From contig DCFQ01000103.1 of assembly GCA_002319915.1 (NCBI GenBank), forward strand, positions 12,653 to 76,652: DNA of 64,000 bases, read 5' to 3'. The first letter of the stretch is position 1, and every line of letters begins with the position of its first letter. Below the pieces are notes generated by a model, which had not been told where the DNA came from, did not search any database, and saw only the letters and a list, made by a program, of their open reading frames with translations. The translations under genes and the position numbers were made by a program. This stretch comes from Bacteroidales bacterium UBA1800 (GTDB lineage Bacteria > Bacteroidota > Bacteroidia > Bacteroidales > VadinHA17). Below are positions 9,271-31,270 of this stretch, in pieces.

Positions 9271-9289
9271 GCTTTCCTGAATCAGGGTG

Positions 9290-9297
9290 CAAAGTTA
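9290..9297 (-). promoter_or_regulatory. Candidate Bacteroidota -7 box (TAACTTTG on the minus strand) for the pseudouridine synthase-era-der transcription unit
   Basis: Plus-strand caaagtta reads TAnnTTTG on the minus strand, 20-27 nt upstream of the ATG at 9270. I saw no well-spaced -33 TTTG. Confidence 0.3.
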
Positions 9298-9303
9298 CAA
9301 TTA

Positions 9304-9335
9304 TTTGACAATATTACGATTTCAGCTTATTTTTG
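9304..9335 (+). promoter_or_regulatory. Candidate Bacteroidota sigma-A promoter for glmM (TTTG-N20-TATTTTTG)
   Basis: tttg at 9304-9307 and tatttttg at 9328-9335 match the -33 TTTG and -7 TAnnTTTG consensus with 20-nt spacing. They end 28 nt upstream of the ATG at 9363. Confidence 0.45.
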
Positions 9336-9362
9336 CTTCCTTAAAACTTAAAACTGCCTACA

Positions 9363-10918: not shown

Positions 10919-12511
10919 ATGAAACGCACGCTTATTATCACTGGTATTGTCGTAATTGCAGCTATTGCAATTCTTATAGTTATCGGCAAGTTGACCAAAA
11001 AGAAGGAAGTTGCCAACCTGTATGTTCAGGCACAAAAGGGGCAGTTTCAGATTGTCGTCTCGACTACCGGTGAACTGCAGGCCGAGAAATCAACCGACAT
11101 CATCGGTCCCGACTTTACTATGAGCAGAAATATCAGGGCGATGGATATTAAAATAACCGACCTGGTCCCGGAAGGAACGGAGGTTAAAAAAGGTGATTAT
11201 GTGGCAACGCTCGACAGAACCTCGTTCGACAACAGCCTGAAGGATGAAAATGACAAGCTGATAACCGCCGAGAACAATGTCGAGGTCAAAATGCTCGATA
11301 CTGCAGTTACCTTGAGTGAGCTGAGGGACAATATCAAGAACCTGAGATATTCTGTTGAAGAGGCTGCCATAACCGTCCAGGAATCGAAGTACGAACCCCC
11401 GACAACCATCCGGCAGGCTGAGATCTCCCTCGACAAGGCAAAGCGTAACCTCGACCAGTCAATTAAAACCTACGGACTGAAAACCCAGCAGGCCAGGACC
11501 GATATGAGGACCCTTAAGAAAACTCTTTCGGACCAGCGCCAGAGAGTAAATGATTTTGCAGCCATACTTGAAAGATTTCTCATTAAGGCGCCAGCCGACG
11601 GCATGGTCATTTACAAAAGGGACAGGATGAATGCAAAAAGGAAGGTCGGTTCGTCAATATCGCCATGGGACAACGTGGTAGCTACACTACCCGATATGTC
11701 AGTAATGATCTCCAAAACATATGTCAATGAAATTGATGTGAGCAAAGTCAAGTCCGGCCAGAAGGTCGAGATCGTCGTGGATGCATTTCCCGAGAAATCC
11801 TACACAGGCGAGGTGGTCAGCGTGGCCAACATCGGTGAACAGCTTCCGAATGCCGATGCAAAGGTGTTTGAAGTTCAGATCCAGGTCGACGGTTCGGACC
11901 CGATCCTGAGGCCATCGATGACGACAGGTAACAAGATCATCACAAAGACCATCAAGGATGTGACGTATATTCCGCTTGAATGCGTACAGACCGGTACAGA
12001 CAGCATCCCGTTCGTTTACACCAGGAACGGCAACAAGCAGATTGTGCTTCTGGGGGAATCAAATGAAAACAACGTGATTGTCGAACAGGGAGTGAAGCCG
12101 GGGGAATCACTTTACCTCAGCACCCCTGCTAAACCTTCAGGATTCAGGACTTCAGGCCAGGACCTTATCGCCCTTAACCGGCAGCGTGCGAAAGAGAAGC
12201 AGGCTGAAGAGGTAAGGGTCAGGGAGGAAGCCGCCAAGGCAGCGGCTAACAGGCAGCAGATGCCCATGGGCGGGCCGATGAATCCCGAAATGATGGGAAG
12301 GTTCAGCAACATGAGAGGCGGGACCATGCCGACTGGCCAGGCCGGCGGAGTCAGGGATACGGCCAGGATGAGGCGTTTCATGCAGATGCGCAATGGCCAG
12401 CAGGGCATACAGCAGGGAGCAGGAAAGGACACTTCGGCAAGGAGAAACCGTAATATCCAGGGGACTACCCAGCAAGGCGACCGGCAGCAGGGACCGGACT
12501 CCAAACGATAG
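10919..12511 (+). CDS. HlyD/MacA-type periplasmic adaptor with a long Met/Gln/Arg/Gly-rich C-terminal tail
   Basis: N-terminal TM anchor (IITGIVVIAAIAILIVI), a coiled-coil hairpin region, and barrel-like segments (GQKVEIVVDAFPEKSYTGEVVSVA). The last 125 aa or so are low complexity. Confidence 0.8.
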   Translation: MKRTLIITGIVVIAAIAILIVIGKLTKKKEVANLYVQAQKGQFQIVVSTTGELQAEKSTDIIGPDFTMSRNIRAMDIKITDLVPEGTEVKKGDYVATLDRTSFDNSLKDENDKLITAENNVEVKMLDTAVTLSELRDNIKNLRYSVEEAAITVQESKYEPPTTIRQAEISLDKAKRNLDQSIKTYGLKTQQARTDMRTLKKTLSDQRQRVNDFAAILERFLIKAPADGMVIYKRDRMNAKRKVGSSISPWDNVVATLPDMSVMISKTYVNEIDVSKVKSGQKVEIVVDAFPEKSYTGEVVSVANIGEQLPNADAKVFEVQIQVDGSDPILRPSMTTGNKIITKTIKDVTYIPLECVQTGTDSIPFVYTRNGNKQIVLLGESNENNVIVEQGVKPGESLYLSTPAKPSGFRTSGQDLIALNRQRAKEKQAEEVRVREEAAKAAANRQQMPMGGPMNPEMMGRFSNMRGGTMPTGQAGGVRDTARMRRFMQMRNGQQGIQQGAGKDTSARRNRNIQGTTQQGDRQQGPDSKR

Positions 12512-12541
12512 ATCAAACAAAAACTTAAAACCTTTACCGGT

Positions 12542-13921
12542 ATGTTAAAGTTCTTCTTCAGGTATTTCCATGATATGGAAATAGCGGTCGAATCAATCAT
12601 TTCGAACAAGCTCAAGTCTATGCTTACCGCACTTGGGATAATCTTCGGCGTTGCTGCCGTAATTGCGATGCTGGCAATAGGAAAAGGTGCAAAGCAGGAG
12701 ATCATGGAACAAATGAAGATGGTCGGGGTGAACAATATCCTGATCAATCCCATAATCCCTGAAAAGAGCTCCTCAAGTGAAAGCGGTGAAGAAAAAGAGC
12801 AGAAGAAATTTTCCCGGGGACTGAGCATGCAGGATGTCGAGTCAATCAGGCAGACCCTTCCTTCGGTTAAGAGAATAAGCCCTGAGATCTCCTTTAACTC
12901 CATTGCAATGCTGAACGGGGTGAAGTACACTGCCAAGCTGGTCGGGGTTTCAAACGATTATTTCCATCTTTACAATCTTCCTCTCATTGAAGGATCATTC
13001 TTCAATAAGTTCCAGGAATACAACGGGATACAGGTATGTATCATAGGAGCGAATATCAGGGCGAAGTTTTTCAGCCAGATCGAGCCGATTGGGCAGTATA
13101 TCAAGTTCAACGGCATATGGCTCAAGGTTATAGGGGTACTTCAGAAGACAAATGTCAACCTGACTGGTTTCGAGGAAAAAGGCGTCAATGTTTACAACGA
13201 TAATATTTACATCCCAATACAGACAATGCTCCTGAGATATGAGAACAGGGGACTCGTCAACACCAAGCTGGTTTCGGAAGCATCTTCAAATGCCATGATC
13301 TTTGGCGGCCCGGGGTTTATGAGTATCGTCGCAGGAAGCAGCACTTCAGCCAGCAGTGCAGAGACAAACTACAACCAGCTCGACAGGATCGTTGTCCAGG
13401 TAAGCGAAACCGAACAGCTCAAGCCGACAACCGAGATCCTCAGCAGGATGTTTACGCGCCGCCATTCAGGAGTGAAGGATTTCGAGATAACTGTTCCGGA
13501 GCTTCTCCTTAAGCAGCAACAAAGGACAAAGGACATTTTCAATATAGTACTGGGAGCCATTGCAAGTATTTCACTCATTGTCGGGGGGATCGGCATTATG
13601 AATATCATGTTTGCCTCGGTGATGGAAAGGATAAAGGAAATTGGCACCAGGATGGCAATCGGGGCAAAAAAGATGGATATTGTCGTTCAGTTCCTTTCCG
13701 AGGCAGTGCTGATAAGCGTTTCAGGCGGCTTCATAGGGATCTTCCTCGGAGTGATAATGGCAAAGCTGATCCAGCAGATCGCGGGAATTATGACCATAGT
13801 CTCCTTTTTCTCGGTCTTCATTGCCTTCGGGGTATCGGCGGCTGTAGGGGTCGTGTTCGGATATTCCCCGGCAAAAAGAGCATCGGAAAAGGACCCGATC
13901 GAATCATTGAGATACGAATAA
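12542..13921 (+). CDS. MacB/FtsX-type ABC transporter permease (no fused ATPase)
   Basis: N-terminal TM, a large periplasmic domain, and the C-terminal FtsX 3-TM module with ERIKEIGTRMAIGAKKMDIVVQFLSEA. The stop overlaps the next ATG (TAATG). Confidence 0.85.
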   Translation: MLKFFFRYFHDMEIAVESIISNKLKSMLTALGIIFGVAAVIAMLAIGKGAKQEIMEQMKMVGVNNILINPIIPEKSSSSESGEEKEQKKFSRGLSMQDVESIRQTLPSVKRISPEISFNSIAMLNGVKYTAKLVGVSNDYFHLYNLPLIEGSFFNKFQEYNGIQVCIIGANIRAKFFSQIEPIGQYIKFNGIWLKVIGVLQKTNVNLTGFEEKGVNVYNDNIYIPIQTMLLRYENRGLVNTKLVSEASSNAMIFGGPGFMSIVAGSSTSASSAETNYNQLDRIVVQVSETEQLKPTTEILSRMFTRRHSGVKDFEITVPELLLKQQQRTKDIFNIVLGAIASISLIVGGIGIMNIMFASVMERIKEIGTRMAIGAKKMDIVVQFLSEAVLISVSGGFIGIFLGVIMAKLIQQIAGIMTIVSFFSVFIAFGVSAAVGVVFGYSPAKRASEKDPIESLRYE

Positions 13922-15423
13922 TGTTTTTAGATATGAAAAAGTTGTTTTTGCTGCCGGCTGTTGCAGTACTTATGTTTGTATTCCAGCGGGCGGAAGCCCA
14001 GGAGATCAAGAGGCTCAAGTTCAATGAGGTCATTGACCTGTCCGAGGGACAATCGCCCCAGGCGCTGATCGCCAAACACAGGTTCCGCGCCAGTTACTGG
14101 CAATACAGGACATTTATCGCCCAGTACAGGCCGTCACTTACGCTTACCGGAACCACTCCCCAGTACAGCACCGCATATGAGAGGGTGTGGAATTCTGCGA
14201 CCAATACCTGGGATTATGTGTCATCAAATACCCTTACCGACATCGGGTCACTTTCGCTGGCGCAGAACATCGGCCTTACGGGAGGTTCCATATTCCTCAA
14301 TTCAAGCCTTACCTTGTTCAACGATTTTGAAAAGGACGCCTTCATTCCTAGGAACTACATTACAGTCCCGCTGGGGATCGGAATTAACCAGCCGATCTTC
14401 AGGTATAACTCACTGAAGTGGCAGAAAAAAACGGAGCCTCTTAAATACGAAGCAGCAAAAAAGACCTTCCTTTACAATATAGAAACTGTTCATCTTCAGG
14501 CGGTCCAGTACTTTTTCGGGCTTGCACTGGCGCAGATCAACAAGCAGATTGCCGATATGAATTATTCTAATGCCGACACTCTCTACCGTATCGCCCAGGG
14601 TCGCTACCAGCTCGGAACGATCGCCGAGAACGAGCTGCTGGAACTGCAGCTTCAATGGCTGAACACTAAAACAAATGTCCAGGCTGCTGAGATGAACCTG
14701 AGGGACAGGGAAATACGACTCAGATCTTTCCTTGGATTCAATGACAACATCAGGCTCGAGCTGGATATTCCTTCCGGGATCCCGGATCTGCAGGTGAGCC
14801 CACAGGAGGTGCTCAACCTGGCGATGGCTAACAACCCTGAGATATTCAACCAGCAGCTGACGGTGCTTACAGCCCAGTCGAACGTGGCACAGGCAAAGGC
14901 AGAGAAGGGACTGAACGCTAACCTGTCACTCTCTTACGGATTACGCAATCAAAACCCCGATTTCTCAATGGCCTATGAAAAGCCGGCGAAACAACAGGTG
15001 GTAAACCTTGCATTTACATTGCCGATCGTTGACTGGGGCCTGGGCAGGGGAAAGTACAAGGTTGCCAAATCGAGCCTTGAGCTTGCCCAGGTGCAGTCGC
15101 AGCAGGCGATCATCGATTTCCAGGCAAACCTGCTTCTGGATGTGGAGCAGTTCAACCTCCAGGCGGCACAGGTTGCCGTTGCCGCCAAATCCGACACGGT
15201 AGCCAGGAAGATGTTCGAAGTTACAAAGCAGAGGTTCCTTATTGGAAAGATCCAGGTGCTGGAGCTGAACAATGCCGATACTAAAAAGGACCAGAACCGC
15301 AGGGCATGGGTCCAGTCGCTTCAGGATTACTGGAACTATTTCTTCACAGTCAGGAGCCTGGCACTCTACGACTTTGTGGCAAGGAAACCGCTTGAATCCG
15401 ACTACGAGAACCTGGTCAGGTAA
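13921..15423 (+). CDS. TolC-family outer membrane efflux protein
   Basis: Signal peptide (KKLFLLPAVAVLMFVFQRAEA) and two repeats of long helical and beta segments typical of OEP/TolC. An alternative start lies at 13933. Confidence 0.85.
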   Translation: MFLDMKKLFLLPAVAVLMFVFQRAEAQEIKRLKFNEVIDLSEGQSPQALIAKHRFRASYWQYRTFIAQYRPSLTLTGTTPQYSTAYERVWNSATNTWDYVSSNTLTDIGSLSLAQNIGLTGGSIFLNSSLTLFNDFEKDAFIPRNYITVPLGIGINQPIFRYNSLKWQKKTEPLKYEAAKKTFLYNIETVHLQAVQYFFGLALAQINKQIADMNYSNADTLYRIAQGRYQLGTIAENELLELQLQWLNTKTNVQAAEMNLRDREIRLRSFLGFNDNIRLELDIPSGIPDLQVSPQEVLNLAMANNPEIFNQQLTVLTAQSNVAQAKAEKGLNANLSLSYGLRNQNPDFSMAYEKPAKQQVVNLAFTLPIVDWGLGRGKYKVAKSSLELAQVQSQQAIIDFQANLLLDVEQFNLQAAQVAVAAKSDTVARKMFEVTKQRFLIGKIQVLELNNADTKKDQNRRAWVQSLQDYWNYFFTVRSLALYDFVARKPLESDYENLVR

Positions 15424-18886: not shown

Positions 18887-19342
18887 ATGAGCGGACAGGA
18901 GATATTTGTCATTATAATTGTTGCCCTGCTTTTGTTCGGGGCAGACAAATTGCCGGAGATCGCACGGGGGCTCGCAAAGGGCATGAGGGATTTCAAGAAG
19001 GCTACAGACGATCTTAAGCGTGAATTTGAGGAGAGCACCAGCGATCTGAGGCGCGATCTTACCGAGGTTTCTGGTTCAATCAGCAGTGATGTCCAGGACA
19101 TTACCAATAATATCAGGACCAATGTCAACGAGGTATCGGGGGACCTGAGGCAGGAGATTCACAACTTCAAGTCGGATGTCCAGGGCAATGTCGATGAGGT
19201 AAAGGAGAACATAGATAAACAGATTGCTGATATAAATGATGTCAATAAGGAGCCGCAGGGCCAGGCAGAGCCTGCAAAGGAGCCAGAACCGGCGCCGGGG
19301 CAGCCGGCAGGTACTGAAACTCCTTCAGGAACCGCCAGTTGA
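18887..19342 (+). CDS. tatA: Twin-arginine translocase TatA/TatE-family subunit with a long acidic, Pro-rich C-terminal tail
   Basis: N-terminus IFVIIIVALLLFGADKLPEIARGLAKGMRDFKKA is the TatA TM plus amphipathic helix signature. No tatC is adjacent. Confidence 0.8.
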   Translation: MSGQEIFVIIIVALLLFGADKLPEIARGLAKGMRDFKKATDDLKREFEESTSDLRRDLTEVSGSISSDVQDITNNIRTNVNEVSGDLRQEIHNFKSDVQGNVDEVKENIDKQIADINDVNKEPQGQAEPAKEPEPAPGQPAGTETPSGTAS

Positions 19343-19399: not shown

Positions 19400-20059
19400 A
19401 TGATTATAACTGAAGGCATTACAAAATCGTTCGGAGACCTTAAGGTCCTTAAGGGGATAAATCTTGAAATAAAAGACAGGGAAGTCGTTTCCATCGTCGG
19501 TGCTTCCGGCGCAGGCAAGACCACCCTCCTTCAGATAATCGGGACTCTCGACAAGCCCGACGACGGTATCGTTAAATATAACGGCACCGACACCCGGCGT
19601 CTCAAGGGAAAATCACTCTCATCTTTCAGGAACAGGAACATCGGATTCGTATTCCAGTTCCATCAGCTCCTGCCCGAATTTACCGCCCTCGAAAATGTTT
19701 GCATTCCTGCATATATTGCCGGAAAGGGTAAATCTGAAGCAGAGGCCCGTGCTGCAGAGATCCTGGGATTCCTTAATCTCAGTGAGAGGCTTGAACATAA
19801 GCCGTCAGAGCTCAGCGGGGGTGAACAGCAAAGAGTTGCCGTGGCAAGGGCATTGATAAATAACCCGTCGGTAATTCTTGCTGACGAACCTTCCGGAAAC
19901 CTTGATTCCGAAAACAAGAACGAGCTTCATAAGCTTTTCTTCAGGCTCAGGGACACATTCGGCCAGACAATAGTGATTGTTACGCACGACAGGCAGCTGG
20001 CCAACATGTCGGACCGTGTCCTTGAGATGAAGGACGGGCTGATTGTGAACGGAGCTTGA
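19400..20059 (+). CDS. ABC transporter ATP-binding protein (LolD/MacB-type)
   Basis: Walker [10 protein letters not shown], signature [15 protein letters not shown], Walker [12 protein letters not shown], and H-loop VTHD. Confidence 0.9.
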
Positions 20060-20168
20060 TCTGCTCTCGCTGGCTTCATGATCAGCACCCGGTATCCAGG
20101 CCGGGACAGTACACCAGGTTAAAAATCTTTCATTAGACGGGGACTGCATATGGGGCTTTGAAAGTCTC

Positions 20169-20924
20169 TCACCTTATCCCCAGCAAGTCCATGAGACCAT
20201 TGATAAAGGTAAGCGGATGAGCCGGATTCCCGGGGACATAAAGATCAACCGGGTGATTGTTAAGGAAGCTCCTGTCGAGGGCAGGACTTCCGTTGAAAAT
20301 ACCGCCGCTGATGGCATCCGTTCCGGCAAGGACAATGATCTTCGGAAATGGGACGGCGTCATAGGTGAGCCTGAGCGCTTCCGCCATGTTCGCGGTGAAA
20401 GGGCCCGTGATCACGATCCCGTCGGCGTGCCGGGGTGATGCAACGAATTCGATCCCGAACCTCCCCATATCAAAATTCACATTCCCCGAAGCGCCCAGCT
20501 CCATTTCGCACGAATTGTCTCCCCCGGCCGATACCTGCCGCAATTTGAGCGACCCCCTGAAAAGTTCCCTGATCTCCTTCCTTACCTTTGTTTCATCGAG
20601 CCTGATCCTGGCATCCGCACCGGGCTTCACGATGAGCCCGCCACGATCATTGACGGCAATCCTGTAATCATTGGTAAACTTTATGGCGCCGGGTTTCAGG
20701 AATGAACACTCGCCGCAGAAGAGGCACCTTCCGAGGTCGATGGCCCCCGAATCATTATTGATCGCACTGACCGGGCACACTGCCGCTGCTTCGCGAATAT
20801 CCCTGGTTGTTATTCCTTCCGCGATCACCGGGCGTCCCCTGAAGAGTGGCGAGACCGGCTGAGTGCGAAGGTCCTTTACCGACTGGTGGCCGTGTCGTGC
20901 CAGAATTGCCAATTCACGTATCAT
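20169..20924 (-). CDS. Hydrogenase-related small subunit: a HycF-like ferredoxin remnant fused to a HycG/NuoB-like domain with degenerate Fe-S ligands
   Basis: The C-terminal two thirds resemble HycG/NuoB (RFGIEFVASPRHADGIVITGP, SGGIF, VDLYVPGNP). The N-terminus carries CP...CLFCGEC. Cysteine positions are detailed in the findings. Confidence 0.8.
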   Translation of the reverse strand: MIRELAILARHGHQSVKDLRTQPVSPLFRGRPVIAEGITTRDIREAAAVCPVSAINNDSGAIDLGRCLFCGECSFLKPGAIKFTNDYRIAVNDRGGLIVKPGADARIRLDETKVRKEIRELFRGSLKLRQVSAGGDNSCEMELGASGNVNFDMGRFGIEFVASPRHADGIVITGPFTANMAEALRLTYDAVPFPKIIVLAGTDAISGGIFNGSPALDRSFLNNHPVDLYVPGNPAHPLTFINGLMDLLGIR

Positions 20925-20948
20925 ACTAATCAGCTTTTGTTAATCAGG

Positions 20949-22469
20949 TTACAGATCATGACCGCAATAGCTCAGGTTAAAGCTTTTATTGCAAACAGGG
21001 AAATCTGAGATCTCCTGGCTCCTTACCGCAAGCGCAAGGGCCATCCAGTTATGCACCGAAGGATCTTTTACTTTATAATGTACAAGGTTTCCCTTTGCAT
21101 CAGTTTCACATGAATGGACGATCTCTCCCCTCCATCCCTCGACGACCGAAACCGAAAAAGCACCCGGCTTCAATTTATATGAATAGTCAGGCTTCCCGGT
21201 ATCTTTATCCTTGCCTGCCCATACCTCGAGAAGCTCCCTGATGATCCTCAATGATTCCCTTACTTCCAGCTTCCGGATCATTCCCCGTGCCAGAACGTCC
21301 CCGGTTTCGAGTATTGCCGGGTTAACGGCAAAGTTCCTGAAGTACTGAAAAGGATGTGTTTTCCGTACATCCCGGGCCATCCCGCACGTTCGGGCCGCGA
21401 TTCCCACGGCCCCGATCTGCCTTGCCTGCGTGCCGGTGACAGTTCCTATATCCTCGAATCTTGCCAGAACGCTGGGGGAGGAATAGATGCACTCTGTTAT
21501 TCCTGAAAATTGCCTGTCAACAAAATCTGTCATTTTAATGATCTCCGCTGCCGTTTCCTCTGAGAGCGGAAAGTTGCTGCCGCCCGACCTGATCAAGCCT
21601 TTGCCGAACCTGTTACCGCACCACAGCTGGGTGGTATTTATCACCCTGGTCCTTATGGCTTCGCAAACCACCTGGCCGAGCTGATAGGCCACGTCACCGC
21701 AAAGGGCAGCGGTATCGCCGATATGGACTGCGATCCTTTCCATTTCGAGAGCGACGCATCTTTCGATCTGAAGTGCTTCGCCTGGTTCCAGCCCCGTAAG
21801 TGATTCAATAAGCTGGGTATGGGCCAGTGAATGTCCCACTGCCGTATCACCGGCAATTGACTCCGCAAGGATGCACCTCTGCAGGGGAGTGTTTTTCGAA
21901 AGGAACAGATCTTCGGTCCCGCGATGCTGGTAACCCAGCTGGATCTCCAGGTGGAGCACTTTTTCGCCGTTGCAGATGAACCTGAAATGGCCGGGCTCAA
22001 TCACCCCGGCATGCACCGGACCGACACCGACCTCGTGAAGCTCTTCGCTTTCTATCCCGTAGAACGGGTAATTCTCCATGGTCTTTGACTTATCCCGGCG
22101 GTTGTGGGGAAATCTTACGCCTTTCATCCACGGATGCCCCTCAAATACGACACCGAAATTTTCATTTATCTCCCGTTCGAAGACGGAGAGCTGAGGAAAG
22201 AGATCTGCTGCTGACCTGAGCACCGGATTCAGAGTGCCGGTCTCATATGCAGCGACTTCAATATTGCCGGAGGGATCATCTGCCAGAAAGCAGTAAAGCT
22301 TTAAGCTATCCTGGGTTTTAATGCCGTAGTATGCCAGGCAGTGCCTGGCTTCATCCTTTAACCCATCGGTGACAAAGCTGTAAAAATCATCATAACCGGA
22401 GATGGGTATTTCCCTGACCCCCCCTGCAGGATAATTGTTTTTCAGTTTGAAATGAGATGGTTGGTCCAT
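20949..22469 (-). CDS. Hydrogenase-related large subunit (NuoC-like plus NuoD/HycE/HyfG-like) lacking the [NiFe] cysteine motifs
   Basis: GPVHAGVIEPGHFRF and LGYQHRG match group 4 large subunit and NuoD signatures. The L1 and L2 motif positions read SIAGDTAVGH and SFNLSYCGHDL. Confidence 0.85.
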   Translation of the reverse strand: MDQPSHFKLKNNYPAGGVREIPISGYDDFYSFVTDGLKDEARHCLAYYGIKTQDSLKLYCFLADDPSGNIEVAAYETGTLNPVLRSAADLFPQLSVFEREINENFGVVFEGHPWMKGVRFPHNRRDKSKTMENYPFYGIESEELHEVGVGPVHAGVIEPGHFRFICNGEKVLHLEIQLGYQHRGTEDLFLSKNTPLQRCILAESIAGDTAVGHSLAHTQLIESLTGLEPGEALQIERCVALEMERIAVHIGDTAALCGDVAYQLGQVVCEAIRTRVINTTQLWCGNRFGKGLIRSGGSNFPLSEETAAEIIKMTDFVDRQFSGITECIYSSPSVLARFEDIGTVTGTQARQIGAVGIAARTCGMARDVRKTHPFQYFRNFAVNPAILETGDVLARGMIRKLEVRESLRIIRELLEVWAGKDKDTGKPDYSYKLKPGAFSVSVVEGWRGEIVHSCETDAKGNLVHYKVKDPSVHNWMALALAVRSQEISDFPVCNKSFNLSYCGHDL

Positions 22470-22475
22470 AATGGT

Positions 22476-23906
22476 TCAGAATGATCCCAGGGTGAGAATG
22501 TTGCTTTTGATAATATCGGTCAGGAAAGGTGGCTGGTAAAAGCATAATATCACTACCAGCCCCAGCAGGATGAACTGGGAGACGGTCTCCACCGCCCTCA
22601 CGGAGGTCACCTGGGGCTGGTCAGGTATCGAACGGGGATCCGAAAAAACTATGTGCATGGTCCGGGTGGTCATAGCGTAAATAACGAAACAAAGGAGGAA
22701 GAAAGTGATGATAAGGACAGCCCAGTTGCTGCCGGTAACCATTGCCCTGAATATCATTATTTCGCTGATGAACAGCCCTGAGGGCGGAATTCCCAGGATG
22801 CAGATAACCCCTGTTATGAGCACGAGTGATCCGGCCGGATAGAGCGCCATATACCTGCCGCAATCATCGAGCTTGAATGTGTGCAGGACCCGTGACAGCT
22901 GCCCCATCTGGTAGAAAAGGCTCGACTTTATCAGTGAGTGGAGGACAATTATCAGGAATGCAGCGTAATAGCCTTCCCCGCCGATCCCGGTGGCGATCGC
23001 GACAAGACCCATGTTCTCAAGGCTCGAATAGGCAAGCATTCGCTTCAGATGCTTCGCTTTCAGCATGTATCCAGCTGCAATAAGCAGGGAAAGGATGCCT
23101 GCCAGGATGAGCACATTATTCATGAAGCTGCGGATGGGCGAGGAGGCAAAAAGTGAATAGACCCTGAAGATCGACAGGAACCCAACGTTCATCAGTGTGG
23201 TCGAGATCAGTGCGCTCACGGGAGGAGGTGAAACCGAGTGTGCATCAATGGTCACCGTGTGCATCGGAAAGAGCCCCATTTTTGTACTGAATCCGACCAG
23301 GACAAAAAGGAACGCGATCTTCAGATAGAGGGGGTTTGCCTTGTCTATTATGACCGACAGATTCTCAAATGTCAGGTTTGCAGCATCGCCCCGGCCGTAG
23401 ATGAAACCGAGGAAAAGGATCCCAAGGTATGCAAGGGCAATGCCGGTGGAACAGATGAAAACATATTTCCAGGTCGCCTCCAGGGCCATTTCGGTCCGGT
23501 CGTGATAGATAAGTGCAGCAACAGCAAGAGTGGTGGCTTCGACAAAGATCCAGAGGACCGTCATTCCATTTGCCAGGTACGCTCCCGACATGAAAGTCAT
23601 CAGCAGGATCAGGGAAGCATGGTAAATGTTGTATTTCCTGATGTCATCCTTCGCCGTATATACAAATCCATGGTAAAACGTAGGGATGGTGAGAAGTGAA
23701 AGGATCGCGAGGAGAAGCACGCCCGAGCTGCTGAAGGTGAAATAGATGAGTTCGGTGGAATTCAGATTCATCCAGGAATGGATGGTGAGCCCGATATGGA
23801 TCAGGGCATAAAGCAGTGATATAAGCCTGGTTACCAGCTTATTCCTGAAAAGGAAAACTGAAAGGCTCAATAGAAATGCCGAAGAAAAGAAAATCAAAAC
23901 TGCCAT
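22476..23906 (-). CDS. HyfF/NuoN/MrpD-like antiporter-type membrane subunit
   Basis: 476-aa polytopic protein with STKMGLFPMHTVTIDAHSVSPPPVSALIS, a proton-conducting membrane transporter signature. Confidence 0.85.
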   Translation of the reverse strand: MAVLIFFSSAFLLSLSVFLFRNKLVTRLISLLYALIHIGLTIHSWMNLNSTELIYFTFSSSGVLLLAILSLLTIPTFYHGFVYTAKDDIRKYNIYHASLILLMTFMSGAYLANGMTVLWIFVEATTLAVAALIYHDRTEMALEATWKYVFICSTGIALAYLGILFLGFIYGRGDAANLTFENLSVIIDKANPLYLKIAFLFVLVGFSTKMGLFPMHTVTIDAHSVSPPPVSALISTTLMNVGFLSIFRVYSLFASSPIRSFMNNVLILAGILSLLIAAGYMLKAKHLKRMLAYSSLENMGLVAIATGIGGEGYYAAFLIIVLHSLIKSSLFYQMGQLSRVLHTFKLDDCGRYMALYPAGSLVLITGVICILGIPPSGLFISEIMIFRAMVTGSNWAVLIITFFLLCFVIYAMTTRTMHIVFSDPRSIPDQPQVTSVRAVETVSQFILLGLVVILCFYQPPFLTDIIKSNILTLGSF

Positions 23907-23909
23907 CCC

Positions 23910-24524
23910 TCAGTCTTTTAGCATTGTAAGTTCGTTGGTATGTGGCTTGAGACGCAATCCAAAAAAGCCCAGGATAAGAACCCCCACGAATATGTCGAGC
24001 AGGATCCCGATGTTTATCAGCGCCGGCATCCTGCTGCCTATTGCAAGGGAGAACATGAACACGGCATTTTCCACGATCAGAAAGCCTATCAGGTGCGAAA
24101 TGATCAGCTTATGGGTAATTATCAGGAGCAGCCCCGTCAATAACGTGTAGAGTGCGACGGCCATGTAAATGACGTTGATATACTGGTTGATCATTGCGCC
24201 CGCGAGAATGACGCTCACAAGCAGCGACAGGATGGAGAGAAGCAGAAGGTAAAATCCCGGCGTTGCCTGCCGGTGTACCTTGGAGACCCCGGAACGGCTG
24301 ATAATCCTGGAAAGAAGATAAGGAATGAGCAGTGTTTTAATTATAAGTGTTTCCGTCACGATGAACAGCAGGTTAACAGTATTTATCTCATTCAGCTCGA
24401 AAACTGCTATTCCGCACAGCAGCAAACCCTGTATTGCAAGCAGCCTGATATATATTATCAGCCTTTCTGCCGCGGCGAAATAAACCAAAGTAACCGAAAA
24501 TAAAACTATAAGATAGTTAACCAT
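23910..24524 (-). CDS. HyfE-like small membrane subunit (NuoK-related)
   Basis: 204-aa protein with multiple TM helices and a membrane-embedded Glu in IVENAVFMFSL. It sits between the HycD-like and HyfF-like genes, as in hyf operons. Confidence 0.7.
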   Translation of the reverse strand: MVNYLIVLFSVTLVYFAAAERLIIYIRLLAIQGLLLCGIAVFELNEINTVNLLFIVTETLIIKTLLIPYLLSRIISRSGVSKVHRQATPGFYLLLLSILSLLVSVILAGAMINQYINVIYMAVALYTLLTGLLLIITHKLIISHLIGFLIVENAVFMFSLAIGSRMPALINIGILLDIFVGVLILGFFGLRLKPHTNELTMLKD

Positions 24525-24530
24525 TGAAAA

Positions 24531-25445
24531 TCAGACTGTTAATTTATTTGTAAGTATAAGGACGATCACAAATGAGATCCAGGCAATCGCTGATATAGTG
24601 AGCAGATACTTCGGGTTCTTGTTCATTTTATTCCTGGCCCTGAATGATTCAAGCAGGCCGATGGCAACTGCAAACAGCAGCTGTACGGCAAGGAACAATA
24701 TGACATGAAGGAAAATATTCCATCCGGAGGGAACGATAATATTATACATCAGGGAGCCGTAAACTGCAAATTTCAGGTAGGATGTGATATGGATCAGGGC
24801 TTTGTCGAAGCCGCTGTTATCCAGGATCATTACCTCGTGGATCATGGTGAGCTCAAGATGTGTCCTGGGATCATCCACAGGGACACGACTGTTCTCTACC
24901 ATGGCGATCTGGGTAAACAGGAAAATACCGATTATGCTGAATATCAGCACATAATCATTTCCGGTGAGGAAGAAGTGATTGAAAATGCCTGAAAAAGAGG
25001 TGTGACCGGTGAACATGGCAAAAGTAGCCATCAGGATGAAAAAGGCAGGTTCAATGAGCATTGAGAAGAATGCTTCCCGGTTGGCTCCCATTCCTTCAAA
25101 GCTGCTGCCTGTGTCGAGAGCGGCAATTATAGAGAAGAACTTCCCGAGCCCGATAAGGTACGCGAAAAAGATAAAGTCGCCTCCGAATGAGATCAGCGAT
25201 CGCTGGTTTGCGAACGGAAGCAGCAGTGAAGCGCATACCAGGGTTGACAATGCAATTACCGGCGCGATCTGGAAGATAATGCCTGTCGTCCCGCTGAATA
25301 CGCTGCCTTTCCTCAGGAGGACAGCAATATCCTTCAGCGGCTGGAAAATCCCAGGCCCCTTGCGTCCCGATGCAATACTTTTTGTCCGCAGGATGATCCC
25401 GGGGAAAAACAGTGCCGATATGAATATCAGAATAACTCCCGGCAT
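24531..25445 (-). CDS. HycD/HyfC/NuoH-like membrane subunit
   Basis: 304-aa polytopic protein. The N-terminal loop GRKGPGIFQPLKDIAVLLRKG matches the NuoH/HycD signature. Confidence 0.85.
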   Translation of the reverse strand: MPGVILIFISALFFPGIILRTKSIASGRKGPGIFQPLKDIAVLLRKGSVFSGTTGIIFQIAPVIALSTLVCASLLLPFANQRSLISFGGDFIFFAYLIGLGKFFSIIAALDTGSSFEGMGANREAFFSMLIEPAFFILMATFAMFTGHTSFSGIFNHFFLTGNDYVLIFSIIGIFLFTQIAMVENSRVPVDDPRTHLELTMIHEVMILDNSGFDKALIHITSYLKFAVYGSLMYNIIVPSGWNIFLHVILFLAVQLLFAVAIGLLESFRARNKMNKNPKYLLTISAIAWISFVIVLILTNKLTV

Positions 25446-25446
25446 C

Positions 25447-27441
25447 TCAGATCAGTTTGAGGCAGGTTAATAAAAAGATCACCAGCATGAAGATGAAGGC
25501 GTATAATATATAGTGGCGGATCTGCCCCGTCTGCATGACAGCAATTTTCTTAAGCAGGGCCGAGATCCAATCGACCGGGATATCGATCAGGATCTTCTTC
25601 AGAATATCTTCGCTGCGCGATTTGAAGGCCCGTTTCCCGGGAAATATTTCTTCTTCCCCTATCTCCTTCATTACCTTCCTGGTCTGAAGCAATGGTTTTG
25701 CAAGGTGATTATAGTTATACGAATATGAAGTGGCTGTATACTGCTGCCTGGCATTGACGGCAGTGTACCCGCATCCCCATGTCGGGCCGGTCGTGACCAT
25801 GCGGCTCTTCAGGTGATAGCGCCTGTAAACCAGCAATGCAACGGTGATCAGGACAAAAATGCCCCCGAGCAGGCTTATCCCGGCAAGGTTTGTGAGGTAA
25901 CCACTCCCCGCAAGGTCGGTACCCGGCAGGTTGAATGAGACTCTTACGGTCTCAAAAAGAGGTTTTACGACCAGGAATGATCCAAACCCGATCAGCAGGA
26001 TAAAGAAGAGGGTCAGTAACTGCGGAACGAGCATCGATCTGCTGACCTCTCCTGCCGATTCCGCTTCCCCTGTGCGAGGCTGGCCTAGGAACACTATGCC
26101 GAAGGCTTTTGTAAAGCAGAAAATTGCCAGCCCTCCGATCAGCACAAGGCCCGTGATCACCAACAGGAACATAATCGAGTGGATAAGGTCAGCTGATGGG
26201 AGGCTGGTAAATATGCCGGCATAGATCAGGTACTCCGAGATAAAGCCGTTAAATGGCGGCAAGCCGCAAATAGCAAGCGAGCCGATAAGAAAGAGGCCGG
26301 CGGTATATGGCATCTTCTTCATCAGGCCCCCGAGCTTTTCTATATTCCGGGTATGGGTGACTGTGTATACCGATCCGGCATTGAAAAACAGCATCGACTT
26401 GAAAAGGGAATGGTTCATGACATGCAGAAGACCGCCGCCAAATCCGAGGAGGCTCAGCACCGTATTCCCCGTTGAAAGGCCGATAACCCCGAGCCCGAGG
26501 CCTATCCCTATAATTCCAATATTCTCGATGCTGTGGTATGCAAGCAGCCTTTTGATGTCGTGCTGCATTATCGCCATCATCACTCCGAAAAGTCCTGAGA
26601 TGACCGAAACGGCAAGGATGAAAATGCCGGTGATCAGCAGGTCGCTTTGCAGTGCGGCGAGGACCCTGATTATCCCGTATATTCCCATTTTTATCATTAC
26701 TCCCGACATCACTCCGGAAACATGTGACGGGGCTGCGGGATGGGCATCAGGAAGCCACGTGTGCAAGGGGATGAACCCGGCCTTTATCCCGAACCCTGCA
26801 AAGAACAGGAGAAAGAGCGGAAAATTTGGATTTCCGGAGAAATAATCCTTCAACGCATCAAAGCTCATCTGGCCGGTGTACCTGCTTACCAGGAGGAACC
26901 CTGTCAGGATGAAAAACATTCCGGCATGCATCTGGATGAGGTAATTGATGCCGGTCTTCAGGATCACCCTTTCTTCCGCCTCGAAGATGACCAGGAGAAA
27001 TGACGATACAGCCATCAGCTCCCAGGCGATCAGGAAGAAAAGTCCGTCGCGGATTGTAACCACGAAGATCATGGAAAGGTAGAGCCACAGATATGAGAAA
27101 TAATGAATCGAAAAGCGAAGCGCATTTTTCTCATGATAGTACGGCTTCAGGTATCCTTTAGCGTAAAGGAATCCGACAAGTGACGTGATGTTGATGACAA
27201 GAATGAAGAATGCTGAGAGCCTGTCGATCACAAGGGGGAAGCTCCTTTGAAGCAGCGGGATTGCGATCCTGATGTCATCTGCCCCGGAATCCTGCACGTA
27301 CAGGAGGATGGCCCAGTATGTGGTCGCGGCAATTCCTGCCCCGAGTATTGCAAGGGTGAAATAATATTTAAGGGATTTCGGGATGAAAAATACCCCGAAT
27401 GATAAAATAACAGAGATCAGAAGAATATATGTCAAGACCAT
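25447..27441 (-). CDS. HyfB/HycC/NuoL-like antiporter-type membrane subunit
   Basis: 664 aa with WELMAVSSFLLV (TM Glu) and GIKAGFIPLHTWLPDAHPAAPSHVSGVMSGVMIKMG. It is the first gene of the operon. Confidence 0.85.
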   Translation of the reverse strand: MVLTYILLISVILSFGVFFIPKSLKYYFTLAILGAGIAATTYWAILLYVQDSGADDIRIAIPLLQRSFPLVIDRLSAFFILVINITSLVGFLYAKGYLKPYYHEKNALRFSIHYFSYLWLYLSMIFVVTIRDGLFFLIAWELMAVSSFLLVIFEAEERVILKTGINYLIQMHAGMFFILTGFLLVSRYTGQMSFDALKDYFSGNPNFPLFLLFFAGFGIKAGFIPLHTWLPDAHPAAPSHVSGVMSGVMIKMGIYGIIRVLAALQSDLLITGIFILAVSVISGLFGVMMAIMQHDIKRLLAYHSIENIGIIGIGLGLGVIGLSTGNTVLSLLGFGGGLLHVMNHSLFKSMLFFNAGSVYTVTHTRNIEKLGGLMKKMPYTAGLFLIGSLAICGLPPFNGFISEYLIYAGIFTSLPSADLIHSIMFLLVITGLVLIGGLAIFCFTKAFGIVFLGQPRTGEAESAGEVSRSMLVPQLLTLFFILLIGFGSFLVVKPLFETVRVSFNLPGTDLAGSGYLTNLAGISLLGGIFVLITVALLVYRRYHLKSRMVTTGPTWGCGYTAVNARQQYTATSYSYNYNHLAKPLLQTRKVMKEIGEEEIFPGKRAFKSRSEDILKKILIDIPVDWISALLKKIAVMQTGQIRHYILYAFIFMLVIFLLTCLKLI

Positions 27442-28534: not shown

Positions 28535-31270
28535 ATGACAAGGGAATCATTCAGATCATTCATCGGGGCATTTTGTCTTTCGGTACTGCTTGGCGGGGTA
28601 CCGGGAAAATTATTCTCTCAGTCAAGGGAAATAAAAATTGAAATCGACGGCTCGGAGAAGTACCAGACTATGGATGGATTCGGGGTGAATATCAACCCTG
28701 CATGGTGGTATGACGGGGCCTATACCGATGCTGCCATCGTGCAGCCGGCTATAGATCTTCTTATCGATTCGCTGGGGGCGTCAGTCTTCAGGGTTGTCAT
28801 TGAGGAGATCGACTGGGAGGCTGTAAATGACGATAATGATCCGGATCATTTTAACTGGGACTATTACAATAAAATATTCTCAGGCATAAGGTTTAAAGGT
28901 ATATGGAATACCCTTCATTACCTTAACAAAAGGGGCGTTACAGACAGGATGTGCATCAGCTTCATGGGGGCGCCTCCGTCTGCGCCGCCGCTCTCGAAGC
29001 CTGATCAGCACCTCAGCTGGATGGGCGATAAACCATATTCCATCAGGGAGAATATGGAAGAAGAGCTGGCTGAAACTGAAGCAGCATTCCTGTACTACAT
29101 GCGGAATACCGAGAAGATAAGCTTCAGTCTCGTATCCCCCATGAATGAAACAGACATTATATCGATGACAAGAAATGCCGAGCACCCTGACGGAATCGCA
29201 GAAGGACCGGATGTCCCTGATGCCGCACAGTGGGTGAGAATAATGCATAAGCTGGCATTAAAGCTTGACAAGATCGGAATGAACAATATCAGGTTCGTGG
29301 CCCCCGATGCCGGGGGAGAAAAGCTCTTTTCGGAGGTTATTGATGAAATGGCAAAGGACCAGTACCTGATGGGGAAGATCGTCAGCTGGGGTGTTCATTG
29401 TTATGGCAATGATGCGCGTTCATACTTTGACAGGATAAGGATGTCTCCTTACCCGGTTAAGCCTTACTGGATAACTGAGACTGCACGCATCAGCCATCTC
29501 TTCGGGCAGCTCGACGATAATGCCACATCGTATATTTTCTGGGATGGCTATGACTGCGTTTACCAGCATGGGAGGAGAAATGGATACGGAAGCGTCCCTC
29601 CTAATGACTGGGTCTTTTGGTTCCCCGGGGAGGGCAAGCCCCTGGTTGAATATATCCCTTCATCCCAAAGCTGGAAGCCGCGAAAGACTTTCTGGCAATA
29701 TGCACAGGTCATGAAATTTGTCAGGCCCGGTTCGGTGCGTATCCGGGTTACCGGACAGGACAGCACTTTTTCAGCTTATGCCTTCTGCAATCCCGACGGA
29801 AGCATGGCCATTACAGGTCTGAACACCGGGATCAGGCCTGTCGAACTGACCGGAGTCCTGCAAAACCTGCCTGCCCTCGGAAATATGAAGCTTGTCTATA
29901 CGGATTCTGTCTCCGATATGAAAACGGGAGCGGCAGTCACTTTCCAGGGAAAAAGCTTCAAAGCTTCCGTACCCGCCGGATCTGTTTTTACAATTACCGG
30001 ATATTCGGATAAGCTGCCCGCAGCAATTGGTGCAATAAGGCCTGAACCATCAGGCTGGTATGCCGGGGATATACATGTACACCGCAATTGCGGAGAAGGA
30101 ACACCGGTGCTTGCGGAGAATGAATTTGTTCCCATGATGGAACCAAATGACCTGGCTGTGATATCAGTGCTGGCCGATATGGGAGACGGGGAGGTAAAGT
30201 ACAGCCAGGCCGATCTTCCGAAAATAAACGGGAAGGATGCGATACAATCAAAACCCGGACATATCGTGCACTGGGATGCTGAATGGCATTTTGATCCCTT
30301 TGGAACTACTTTTGAGCATAAGGCCCTCGGAGGCCACATCGTTCTCCTTGGCCTGAATGAAGCTCACACTATATGGGATGAATCGGCTTACAAGGTTGCA
30401 GAATGGGGGAAGAAACAGGATGCCATTACAGGCTTCTGCCATCTCCAGTACCTGAATGATTCAATTCAGAATAACCTCGATTGCTGCATACCAGTCGACT
30501 ATCCTGTGGAGACAGCACTCGGGACAATTGACTTTCTTTCCGAGGATGTCTGGCTCAATGATGCCGCAATCAATGCATACTATAAGATCCTTAACTGTGG
30601 ATTCCGGCCCGGCTTGGCAGCAGGGACAGATTTCCCGTGCAACAACAGCAGGCCATTCGGATCACTTCTTACATACGTTCAGGTTATAGACCAGCCCATG
30701 ACTTACAGGAAATGGATCGAAGGCATCAGGGCCGGAAGGACAGTCGTTTCGACAAATGGCCATGCTGAATTCCTTGAACTTCGCGTGAACGGGTCCGCAT
30801 CACCCGGGGATGAGATAAAATTGGGCAAACGGGGAGTTGTTTCAGCCAATGTTACCTGGACGACGGCGAAAGAGCTTTCAGGGAAGATCGAAATTGTGTG
30901 CAACGGCAAGGTTGTTGCATCAGTAGATGGCACGTCCGGACCCGGTGAGCCGGTGCATTTCAGTAGCCCGATCAGGATCAGTGAAAGCAGTTGGATCTGT
31001 GCAAGAAGAATGGATGCAAACGGTCACCGGACCCACACAGCCCCGGTTTACATCTCATGCAAGGGAAAACCTGTGAGGGCAAGTGAATCAGACGCCAGGT
31101 ACTTTGAAGCCTGGATTGATAATATCCTTAAGAACATCGGACCGGGAGGACCCTGGAGTATCTATTTCACCCACGACCTGGAAACCGTAAGAGCAAGGTA
31201 TCTGAAGGCCAAAGATATATACGAGAGTATAGCTGCAGAGGCGGCAAAAACAAATAAAAACAATAACTGA
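28535..31270 (+). CDS. Secreted fusion of an N-terminal GH30-like glycoside hydrolase region and a C-terminal PHP/CehA-McbA-type metallohydrolase region
   Basis: Signal peptide. The KYQTMDGFGVNINPAWW block is typical of O-glycosyl hydrolase family 30-like proteins. The C-terminal half begins GWYAGDIHVHRNCGEG (PHP-type HxH) with later His/Asp clusters. Confidence 0.6.
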   Translation: MTRESFRSFIGAFCLSVLLGGVPGKLFSQSREIKIEIDGSEKYQTMDGFGVNINPAWWYDGAYTDAAIVQPAIDLLIDSLGASVFRVVIEEIDWEAVNDDNDPDHFNWDYYNKIFSGIRFKGIWNTLHYLNKRGVTDRMCISFMGAPPSAPPLSKPDQHLSWMGDKPYSIRENMEEELAETEAAFLYYMRNTEKISFSLVSPMNETDIISMTRNAEHPDGIAEGPDVPDAAQWVRIMHKLALKLDKIGMNNIRFVAPDAGGEKLFSEVIDEMAKDQYLMGKIVSWGVHCYGNDARSYFDRIRMSPYPVKPYWITETARISHLFGQLDDNATSYIFWDGYDCVYQHGRRNGYGSVPPNDWVFWFPGEGKPLVEYIPSSQSWKPRKTFWQYAQVMKFVRPGSVRIRVTGQDSTFSAYAFCNPDGSMAITGLNTGIRPVELTGVLQNLPALGNMKLVYTDSVSDMKTGAAVTFQGKSFKASVPAGSVFTITGYSDKLPAAIGAIRPEPSGWYAGDIHVHRNCGEGTPVLAENEFVPMMEPNDLAVISVLADMGDGEVKYSQADLPKINGKDAIQSKPGHIVHWDAEWHFDPFGTTFEHKALGGHIVLLGLNEAHTIWDESAYKVAEWGKKQDAITGFCHLQYLNDSIQNNLDCCIPVDYPVETALGTIDFLSEDVWLNDAAINAYYKILNCGFRPGLAAGTDFPCNNSRPFGSLLTYVQVIDQPMTYRKWIEGIRAGRTVVSTNGHAEFLELRVNGSASPGDEIKLGKRGVVSANVTWTTAKELSGKIEIVCNGKVVASVDGTSGPGEPVHFSSPIRISESSWICARRMDANGHRTHTAPVYISCKGKPVRASESDARYFEAWIDNILKNIGPGGPWSIYFTHDLETVRARYLKAKDIYESIAAEAAKTNKNNN

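Follow-up and report, generated by a model that had tools for sequence, protein, structure and literature searches.

INTRODUCTION

The Ehr (Ech-hydrogenase-related) complexes were reportedly named by Coppi in 2005 in Geobacter sulfurreducens (GSU0739-0745), and Marreiros et al. are said to have surveyed them in 2013. Papers citing this literature describe them as complexes related to Ech, or energy-converting hydrogenase, that have no Ni-Fe site and no agreed function. Here, we describe an Ehr complex encoded on a stretch of 64,000 nucleotides from Bacteroidales bacterium UBA1800 (contig DCFQ01000103.1, positions 12,653 to 76,652), hereafter called the window, in whose own numbering all positions are given. 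The focus is on its small subunit gene, ehrS (20169-20924, minus strand), which, based on the open reading frame and on Pfam and PDB matches, encodes a 251-residue protein with a HycF/NuoI-like ferredoxin domain fused to a NuoB/HycG-like domain. An earlier note, made from the letters of this DNA, had proposed that this protein has lost the ligands of the proximal iron-sulfur cluster and has selectively kept one of two ferredoxin clusters.

The locus shares with the described Ehr complexes (EhrABCDLS) the same six genes in the same order, Hyf-like membrane subunits, a large subunit that lacks the Ni-Fe cysteines, and an N-terminal ferredoxin-like domain on the small subunit. It differs in that the Geobacter-type complexes (locus L071, Geobacter argillaceus) and most others outside the Bacteroidota keep four proximal cysteines, whereas the window protein has Asp, Cys, Asp, and Asn at these positions and the ligands of one ferredoxin cluster. 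The complex is thus an Ehr, a known kind, but the openly accessible Ehr literature, a coverage that leaves out the 2005 and 2013 studies mentioned above, yielded no account of which ligands the small subunit keeps, of a series graded from three over two to one cluster, or of a recurrent Cys-to-Asp exchange.

The best structural relatives of the two halves of EhrS are HycF and HycG (HyfH and HyfI) of the Escherichia coli formate hydrogenlyase/hydrogenase-4 complex (7Z0S), and that of the large subunit EhrL is HycE, while the ehr membrane subunits match models of HyfB, HyfE, and HyfF. In formate hydrogenlyase, however, HycF and HycG are separate proteins with three [4Fe-4S] clusters that feed a Ni-Fe site, whereas EhrS is a fusion protein with one predicted cluster and the complex has no Ni-Fe site. 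With complex I, the locus has in common the NuoI and NuoB folds of EhrS and the ligand set of cluster N6b, and in EhrL, D259 aligns with Nqo4 D139 and residues 281-290 with the segment around His169. The ligand sets of N2 and N6a are absent from EhrS, and EhrL has I157 and G207 in the alignment where Nqo4 has His38 and Tyr87 of the quinone site. The Pyrococcus MBS/MBX complex (6U8Y) likewise descends from group 4 hydrogenases, no longer has their Ni-Fe site, and retains an antiporter-type membrane arm, and its chain 6u8y_H is the best PDB match of the membrane subunit EhrD (1.3e-29). Unlike EhrS, MBS has the full complement of three [4Fe-4S] clusters and employs them in catalysis, and MbsJ matches EhrS weakly (1.3e-9). 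Finally, the Mrp Na+/H+ antiporter has homologous antiporter-type subunits with the same conserved Glu and Lys residues and may, by analogy, serve as a functional model for a non-redox Ehr, but it has no NuoB, NuoD, NuoH, or NuoI-like peripheral module, whereas Ehr keeps that module under strong constraint.

RESULTS

Retranslation of 20169-20924 on the minus strand reproduced every residue position and motif given in the earlier note, and the start codon is backed by N-terminal residues that are conserved among orthologs (M1, H11, G12, and Q14). EhrS contains five cysteines in total, C50 (followed by P51), C67, C70, C73, and C139, and further motifs are K77-P78, D136-N-S-C139, G201-T-D203-A-I-S-G-G, and P231-G-N233-P. 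Relatives of EhrS are abundant, forming more than 8000 90%-identity clusters at E <= 0.001, the nearest of which are approximately 70% identical and come from Bacteroidales metagenome-assembled genomes. Two sets were used for comparison, 150 representatives of 50%-identity clusters and 80 loci obtained by a scan of one genome per species.

The ferredoxin domain covers residues 22-112 (20589-20861, minus strand), as delimited by a domain profile and an AlphaFold model, and includes F28-R-G-R-P32. The profile, built from residues 22-112 of 21 diverse family members, was compared with solved structures and matched HycF (7z0s_F, 6.7e-16), MbsN (2.8e-14), MbhN (1.7e-11), and, at approximately 1e-10 to 1e-11, NdhI and NuoI. 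These matches extend over the whole domain, including the RFRG that precedes Cys motif 1 and the stretch that follows motif 2, so that the HycF/NuoI-type assignment made in the earlier note is upheld. The NCBIfam HycF model matched residues 21-100, below its threshold. An origin from a single-cluster ferredoxin of the Fer4_15 type was rejected, since the profile fits the two-cluster HycF/NuoI family from end to end. No separate HycF/NuoI gene was seen in the ehr operon, and the fused domain thus appears to supply that subunit.

Ferredoxins with two [4Fe-4S] clusters bind cluster A with Cys I-III of motif 1 and the CP-Cys of motif 2, and cluster B with the reverse set. In EhrS, motif 1 is reduced to C50 (20775-20777) and motif 2 to C67 (20724-20726), C70 (20715-20717), and C73 (20706-20708), all on the minus strand with verified codons (20706-20777), which leaves four of the eight cysteines of a two-cluster ferredoxin. 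K77 (20694-20696, minus strand) stands where motif 2 has lost its fourth Cys, a predicted ligand of the lost N6a-equivalent cluster. The first three cysteines of motif 1 are absent in every Bacteroidota member and also in other relatives, while many relatives contain both motifs in complete form, for example an Isosphaeraceae locus, L068 (CPDGCHACALACP ... CLFCTDCVDACP), which bears out the proposal of a decayed two-cluster ferredoxin. The C50/C67/C70/C73 set itself is never lost; it is invariant in 80 of the 80 loci, which are 43-72% identical and belong to several phyla, and it is present in essentially every full-length representative of the 50%-identity clusters.

The two ligand sets behave as units. 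Across 151 sequences, position 77 was Cys in 47 and non-Cys in 1 when all three motif-1 cysteines were present, and Cys in 4 and non-Cys in 73 when motif 1 had none of them. This covariation is the pattern that ferredoxin ligation predicts and therefore supports the claim that the surviving four cysteines are exactly the set of one cluster. The reading of K77 as the changed fourth Cys holds for the site, which is followed by P78 and covaries with motif 1, but not for the Lys, since orthologs have F, A, L, C, K, Y, or H at this variable position. The spacing of 17 residues between C50 and C67 is the commonest spacing between a CP-Cys and the next motif in the family (79 of the 151 sequences), and clostridial 2x[4Fe-4S] ferredoxins have the same spacing. 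The pattern of retained cysteines far exceeds chance and, together with their invariance, supports binding of a [4Fe-4S] cluster by these four residues, whereas the second ferredoxin cluster appears to be dispensable as a unit.

The position of this cluster in the chain can be approached through complex I. Ala159 of human NDUFS8 has been described as adjoining "Cys126 coordinating cluster N6a" (PMC9783039). This Cys presumably corresponds to Cys160 in the numbering of the precursor, the CP-Cys of motif 2, and the human sequence behind this conversion agrees with the mutation sites given in that paper. With the CP-Cys of motif 2 ligating N6a, the CP-Cys of motif 1 and Cys I-III of motif 2 would bind N6b. 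The clusters of complex I are ordered N5-N6a-N6b-N2, and the cluster retained in EhrS would thus be the one that adjoins the proximal site. By homology, it would therefore be the counterpart of N6b, the neighbour of N2. This placement is consistent with 10 loci (Gastranaerophilales, G. argillaceus, and others) that have the ligands of the retained and the proximal cluster only.

The NuoB/HycG-like domain spans residues 125-248 (20181-20552, minus strand), and ligand mapping and conservation point to a domain without the proximal cluster. Pfam Oxidored_q6 matched residues 138-247 above the family cut-off (3.4e-18), and pairwise HMMER comparison with solved structures matched HycG (1.4e-18) and MbhJ, next to the weak match with MbsJ mentioned above. 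The NCBIfam cut-offs for NuoB were missed (85.5 versus 116 bits and 80.1 versus 142.7 bits). In the pairwise alignments, the MbhJ segments GSCNGCDIE, IGACPTGG, and PGCPP and the HycG segments GGCNGCEIE, YGACGNSGG, and PGCPP correspond to GGDNSCEME, AGTDAISGG, and PGNPA of EhrS. Three of the four proximal ligands are therefore replaced, as the earlier note had read from the motifs. The four positions at which group 4 [NiFe]-hydrogenases bind the proximal cluster are occupied by D136 (20517-20519), C139 (20508-20510), D203 (20316-20318), and N233 (20226-20228), with S138 (20511-20513) between the first two (all minus strand), and one Cys is left of the four N2 ligands that characterize NuoB. By homology, the NuoB-like domain of EhrS is predicted to bind no iron-sulfur cluster, and EhrS as a whole would carry one [4Fe-4S] cluster.

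The replacements are themselves conserved. The set of small subunits without proximal-cluster ligands (n = 46), hereafter cluster-less, consists of 45 loci and the window sequence. Here, Asp fills position 136 in 45 sequences, the one exception having Glu, and all 46 have Ser at position 138, in contrast to the Gly or Ala of almost all relatives with the proximal cysteines (Cys-type). Position 203 is acidic throughout (42 Asp, 4 Glu), and at position 233, 40 sequences have Asn and the other 6 have Ala. Thus, of the Asp/Asp/Asn trio, the two acidic positions stand throughout the set, but Asn233 does not; Alistipes and related Rikenellaceae have Ala at 233 and Glu at 203. C139, taken before as the one surviving proximal ligand, is there in the window protein, but is conserved in just 29 of the 46 sequences, the others having A, V, S, I, T, or H. 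Among 44 of the nearest orthologs, C50, P51, C67, C70, C73, D136, N137, S138, and N233 are invariant and D203 is conserved in at least 90%, whereas C139 and K77 are not conserved. Systematic differences between cluster-less and Cys-type small subunits were found only at positions 136, 138, 203, and 233.

Sorted by ligands, 21 of the 80 loci have both ferredoxin clusters and the proximal cluster, 10 have the retained ferredoxin cluster and the proximal cluster, 44, all from Bacteroidota, have the retained cluster only, and L068 has both ferredoxin clusters and no proximal cluster; 4 loci are ambiguous in motif 1. Judged by these ligand sets, Ehr small subunits thus occur with three, two, or one predicted iron-sulfur clusters across the family, and the window EhrS belongs to a putative one-cluster clade that spans several Bacteroidota orders. 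Since a one-cluster ferredoxin domain is also present in relatives with an intact proximal cluster, the ferredoxin and proximal-cluster losses are independent events. Within the Bacteroidota, the loci come from Bacteroidales, Prolixibacteraceae, Rikenellaceae/Alistipes, Paludibacter, Lentimicrobiaceae, Flavobacteriales, Saprospiraceae, and Roseivirgaceae, and the other loci are from Melainabacteria/Gastranaerophilales, Spirochaetota, Ignavibacteria, Myxococcota, Geobacter, Planctomycetota, Aminicenantes, and Omnitrophota. The ehrS sequence was present in DNA runs of soil and wetland metagenomes, and none of the RNA runs searched carried it. A pseudogene or assembly artefact was rejected as the identical protein is encoded on independent contigs and in several metagenomes.

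A neighbour-joining tree was calculated with the ligand columns masked. The cluster-less group of the Bacteroidota formed one clade, and L068 (Isosphaeraceae metagenome-assembled genome, JBEKTN010000182.1, match 9191-9916; proximal ligands D/S/D/N) fell outside it, within a Cys-type clade. Compared over the NuoB-like domain without the masked columns (ligands and other cluster-site positions), L068 shares 82% identity with the Cys-type sequence P0158 and at most 64% with any other cluster-less sequence. From P0158 to L068, GGCNACE changes to GGDNSSE, GACA to GADA, and PGCP to PGNP, which gives the same D-N-S, D, and N as in the Bacteroidota. Three further pairs of sequences differ in a similar manner: SCNGCE to SDNAAE, DCA to DAA, and PGC to PGD (P0225 versus P0238), SCNACE to SENSCD, ACA to DEA, and PGC to PGD (P0191 versus P0263), and SCNGCE to SDGAVE, VCA to ADA, and PGC to PGS (P0160 versus P0189). 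Going by these sequence comparisons, the exchange of the cluster for acidic residues arose independently at least twice, and probably about five times. In these approximately five conversions, ligand 1 became Asp or Glu in 5 of 5 and ligand 3 in 4 of 5. By rough arithmetic, with Asp and Glu together making up approximately 12% of residues, the chance of 5 of 5 is approximately 1e-5, a value that depends on the event count. L068 and P0158 form a near-isogenic natural Cys/Asp pair.

Mean pairwise identity within the cluster-less clade is highest in the NuoB-like domain (72%), compared to 58% for the NuoD-like part of EhrL, 49% for the ferredoxin domain, and 48-57% for the membrane subunits, and the Cys-type group shows a similar ranking, again with the NuoB-like domain highest (68%). 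The NuoB-like domain being the most conserved region after cluster loss, selection was not relaxed, and neutral decay was rejected. The suggestion of selective retention rather than random decay is therefore supported, the replacements being both conserved and convergent.

An AlphaFold model of EhrS, calculated with 44 orthologs, had a mean predicted local distance difference test score (pLDDT) of 73, with 85-93 for the ferredoxin domain (residues 30-120). A Foldseek search with this model returned PSST, NuoB, MbhJ, and HycG, so that only the NuoB-like fold was recovered. Judged by complex I distances, the retained cluster would lie more than approximately 20 Å from the EhrL pocket.

The gene ehrS is the last of six tightly packed co-directional genes, ehrABCDLS (27441-20169, minus strand). 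The preceding gene, ehrL (20949-22469), encodes the large subunit, a fused NuoC-NuoD/HycE-like protein of 506 residues in which the Ni-Fe cysteines are replaced by A206, T209, S500, and G503. In the alignment with HycE (9.7e-33), RVCGICGFAHS corresponds to SIAGDTAVGHS and DPCYSC to NLSYCG, so that all four Ni-Fe cysteines are gone and neither the L1 (RxCGxCxxxH) nor the L2 (DPCxxCxxH/R) motif of group 4 [NiFe]-hydrogenases is present. Among 72 aligned large subunits, the C-terminal Cys pair was absent in all 72 and a Cys at the first position was found in 12; none therefore has the full Ni-Fe Cys set, and the whole set of loci is Ehr. At the former Ni-Fe site, EhrL carries a signature, E203-x2-A/C-G207-D208-T/S209, D259, R287, and N498-x-S500-x2-G503, that is invariant or nearly so across phyla and may be the actual functional site of Ehr complexes. 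Cys-type and cluster-less complexes alike have E203, G207, D208, D259, and R287 without exception, and N498 and S500 with few exceptions or none, which suggests that the role of this pocket is independent of the proximal cluster.

Other positions in EhrL do distinguish the two types, among them H43, Q263, Q281, W283, N286, K290, and P301; Cys-type complexes have Arg at 290 and Ile or Leu in place of W283. Residues 281-290 align to Nqo4 161-170 of Thermus complex I, which includes His169, a residue in contact with N2. Since these changes align to the N2-side segment, EhrS and EhrL appear to have changed together around the vacated site. The large subunit of L068 keeps the Cys-type residues and has none of K290, W283, and the other Bacteroidota-type residues. 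This indicates that its cluster loss was recent and independent, and that the large-subunit changes were no prerequisite for losing the cluster; the idea that L068 shares the Bacteroidota-type EhrL co-adaptation was accordingly rejected. At EhrL residue 451, the window has Val, 98% of the cluster-less, Bacteroidota-type orthologs have Cys, and the Cys-type complexes mostly have Val or Ala.

The remaining four genes, also on the minus strand, encode the membrane arm. EhrA (25447-27441, 664 residues) is a HyfB/NuoL-like antiporter-type subunit that retains E141, K220, K251, K348, and E403, and EhrD (22476-23906, 476 residues) is a HyfF/NuoN-like antiporter-type subunit that retains E123, K209, K327, and E382. 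The Glu/Lys sets of both proteins match the Glu of transmembrane helix 5 (TM5), the Lys of TM7, and the Lys/Glu of TM12 of antiporter-type subunits, and each of these residues (for EhrA, E141, K220, K348, and E403) is shared by at least 93% of 57-65 orthologs. EhrB (24531-25445, 304 residues) is a NuoH/HycD-like subunit that matches Pfam NADHdh and in which many acidic residues are invariant, and EhrC (23910-24524, 204 residues) is a HyfE-like membrane subunit with conserved E152 and D177 and a match, below cut-off, to the NCBIfam hydrogenase 4 membrane subunit (2.7e-11). None of the six ehr proteins matched an NCBIfam model at its curated cut-off. The order A-B-C-D-L-S was found cleanly in 34 loci and in 12 more with the ehrA reading frame split in two, and most others were cut by contig ends. 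No conserved neighbour gene, such as one for a formate dehydrogenase, ferredoxin, or NuoEF, was found, the most frequent flanking family occurring in 7 of the 80 loci, none of them from Bacteroidota. The G+C content is 53% over ehrS and ehrL (20001-22000), compared to 47-50% over the membrane-subunit genes and flanks, which probably reflects the composition of soluble versus membrane proteins and not a foreign origin.

In the window, the ehr operon is flanked by housekeeping functions, including MacAB/TolC-like efflux, SecDF, TatA, an ABC ATPase, DUF2400, and a GH30-like protein. The HlyD-type membrane-fusion protein of the efflux operon (10919-12511, plus strand; operon 10919-15423) has a C-terminal tail of approximately 100 residues, rich in Q, G, M, and R and without a domain match. 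The TatA/E-family protein (18887-19342, plus strand, 151 residues) has an unusually long acidic tail of approximately 100 residues with weak apolipoprotein and coiled-coil matches. A secreted-looking protein of 911 residues (28535-31270, plus strand) contains as its only recognised domain a GH30 beta-sandwich (residues 399-487), and its C-terminal 420 residues have no Pfam match. No tRNA or tmRNA genes were found in the whole 64-kb window (1-64000).

DISCUSSION

The explanation towards which we lean, with somewhat better than even confidence, is that EhrS is a one-cluster protein in which acidic residues stand in for the proximal cluster and that the complex translocates ions with no electrons passing all the way through. 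If the NuoB-like domain has no cluster, the canonical relay, which runs from a donor over the ferredoxin clusters and the proximal cluster to the EhrL pocket, would be cut one step short. The two carboxylates, with a net charge of -2, could take over the charge that the oxidised cluster, [Fe4S4(Cys)4]2-, would carry or, alternatively, coordinate a hard cation. Together with S138 and N233 and with K290, Q281, N286, and W283 of EhrL, they would hold the EhrS-EhrL interface intact, and this interface would couple to the membrane arm. As the membrane arm keeps the canonical antiporter Glu and Lys residues, the complex would still be an ion-translocating machine. Ehr would then most likely be a Mrp-like antiporter with no through-going electron transfer, and its one remaining [4Fe-4S] cluster, at the surface, would have a structural or redox-sensing role.

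Several points weigh against this explanation. The accessible literature gives no Ehr biochemistry and calls the function unknown, and the absolute conservation of the retained cluster is easier to explain by electron carriage than by a structural role. The position of the ferredoxin domain relative to the NuoB-like domain is modelled on NuoI and HycF, by analogy, and the roles in charge mimicry and cation binding are purely hypothetical proposals. A fixed metal site with four ligands would not be universal, given the Ala at 233 and the Glu at 203 of Alistipes and its Rikenellaceae relatives. The EhrS model has a pLDDT below 50 at residues 134-161, around the vacated site, which is to be expected for an interface region modelled alone, and the count of independent conversions derives from neighbour-joining and nearest-neighbour identity only.

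A wider proposal, which we offer tentatively and would sooner doubt than adopt, is that the proximal cluster has been repeatedly and independently swapped for an Asp-x-Ser...Asp...Asn set (or Asp...Asp/Glu...Ser/Asp) that acts as a -2 charge mimic or a cation site, turning an electron-driven pump into an ion translocator that can do without electron transfer through its whole length, while the N6b-like cluster always stays in place to gate the complex or to sense redox state.

The main rival is that Ehr is still a redox-driven ion pump, in which the N6b-like cluster receives electrons from ferredoxin or flavodoxin and hands them straight to a small cofactor or a substrate that occupies the vacated cavity. 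The catalytic site would then lie one step up the chain, in a cavity lined by D136, S138, D203, and N233 and by K290, Q281, and N286 of EhrL. There is an analogy in MBS, where catalysis reportedly takes place at the proximal cluster. The best argument for such a pump is the absolute conservation of the retained cluster, which is invariant in every lineage, including the independent converts. Moreover, the convergent polar set of D, S, D, and N hints at a specific binding site over mere filling, the membrane arm is intact, and, going by complex I homology and established spacing, the vacated site would be within electron-transfer distance of the N6b equivalent. However, the surroundings of the operon contain no conserved gene that would point to a substrate or partner, the cavity lining varies (233 is Ala in 6 of 46, 203 is Asp or Glu, and 139 is variable), and the EhrL pocket is identical with or without the cluster, which would be unexpected if the chemistry had moved. 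We therefore regard a redox pump of this kind as unlikely.

We give still less credit to the possibility that the Asp/Asp/Asn site holds a redox-active metal, either an O-ligated iron-sulfur cluster or a mononuclear Fe, Mn, or Ni, and that the relay is thereby kept in altered form. The acidic replacements of ligands 1 and 3 are indeed conserved and convergent, and Asp-ligated [4Fe-4S] clusters exist, as in the Pyrococcus furiosus ferredoxin with 3 Cys and 1 Asp. However, at most one thiolate is left in the site, as residue 139 is Cys in 29 of 46 sequences and something else in 17, and we know of no [4Fe-4S] cluster bound by two carboxylates and one amide with no obligatory thiolate. N233 is replaced by Ala in the Alistipes group, and Trp283 of EhrL, in place of Ile or Leu, suggests that protein fills the space. 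With the fourth Cys not conserved and N233 replaceable by Ala, a redox centre without Cys ligation is improbable. Lastly, neutral decay, in which the peripheral arm would be a dispensable relic and the residue pattern without function, would fit the loss of both the Ni-Fe site and the proximal cluster, but deserves hardly any credence and is effectively refuted by the conservation data, with intact reading frames and operon order kept across several Bacteroidota orders, the NuoB-like domain as the most conserved part of the complex, systematic differences from cluster-bearing relatives confined to the ligand positions and S138, and an identical replacement pattern in independent lineages.

In public databases, EhrS orthologs go under the names "Ni,Fe-hydrogenase III small subunit" or "NADH:ubiquinone oxidoreductase", despite the lack of a Ni-Fe partner and of the N2 ligands, which is a systematic misannotation that calls for caution.

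If the acidic residues do serve as a stand-in for the proximal cluster in an ion-translocating Ehr, these complexes would amount to a natural experiment in which the NuoB/NuoD/NuoH coupling module operates with a non-redox substitute for N2. Ehr has been described as a missing link that joins complex I to the membrane-bound hydrogenases, and its carriers include gut Alistipes, environmental Bacteroidota, Melainabacteria, Geobacter, and mycobacteria. The natural variants lend themselves to experiment, in cultivable Alistipes and in close Cys/Asp pairs such as L068 and P0158, and the graded cluster states lead to a testable hypothesis on how far complex I-type coupling depends on its terminal cluster.

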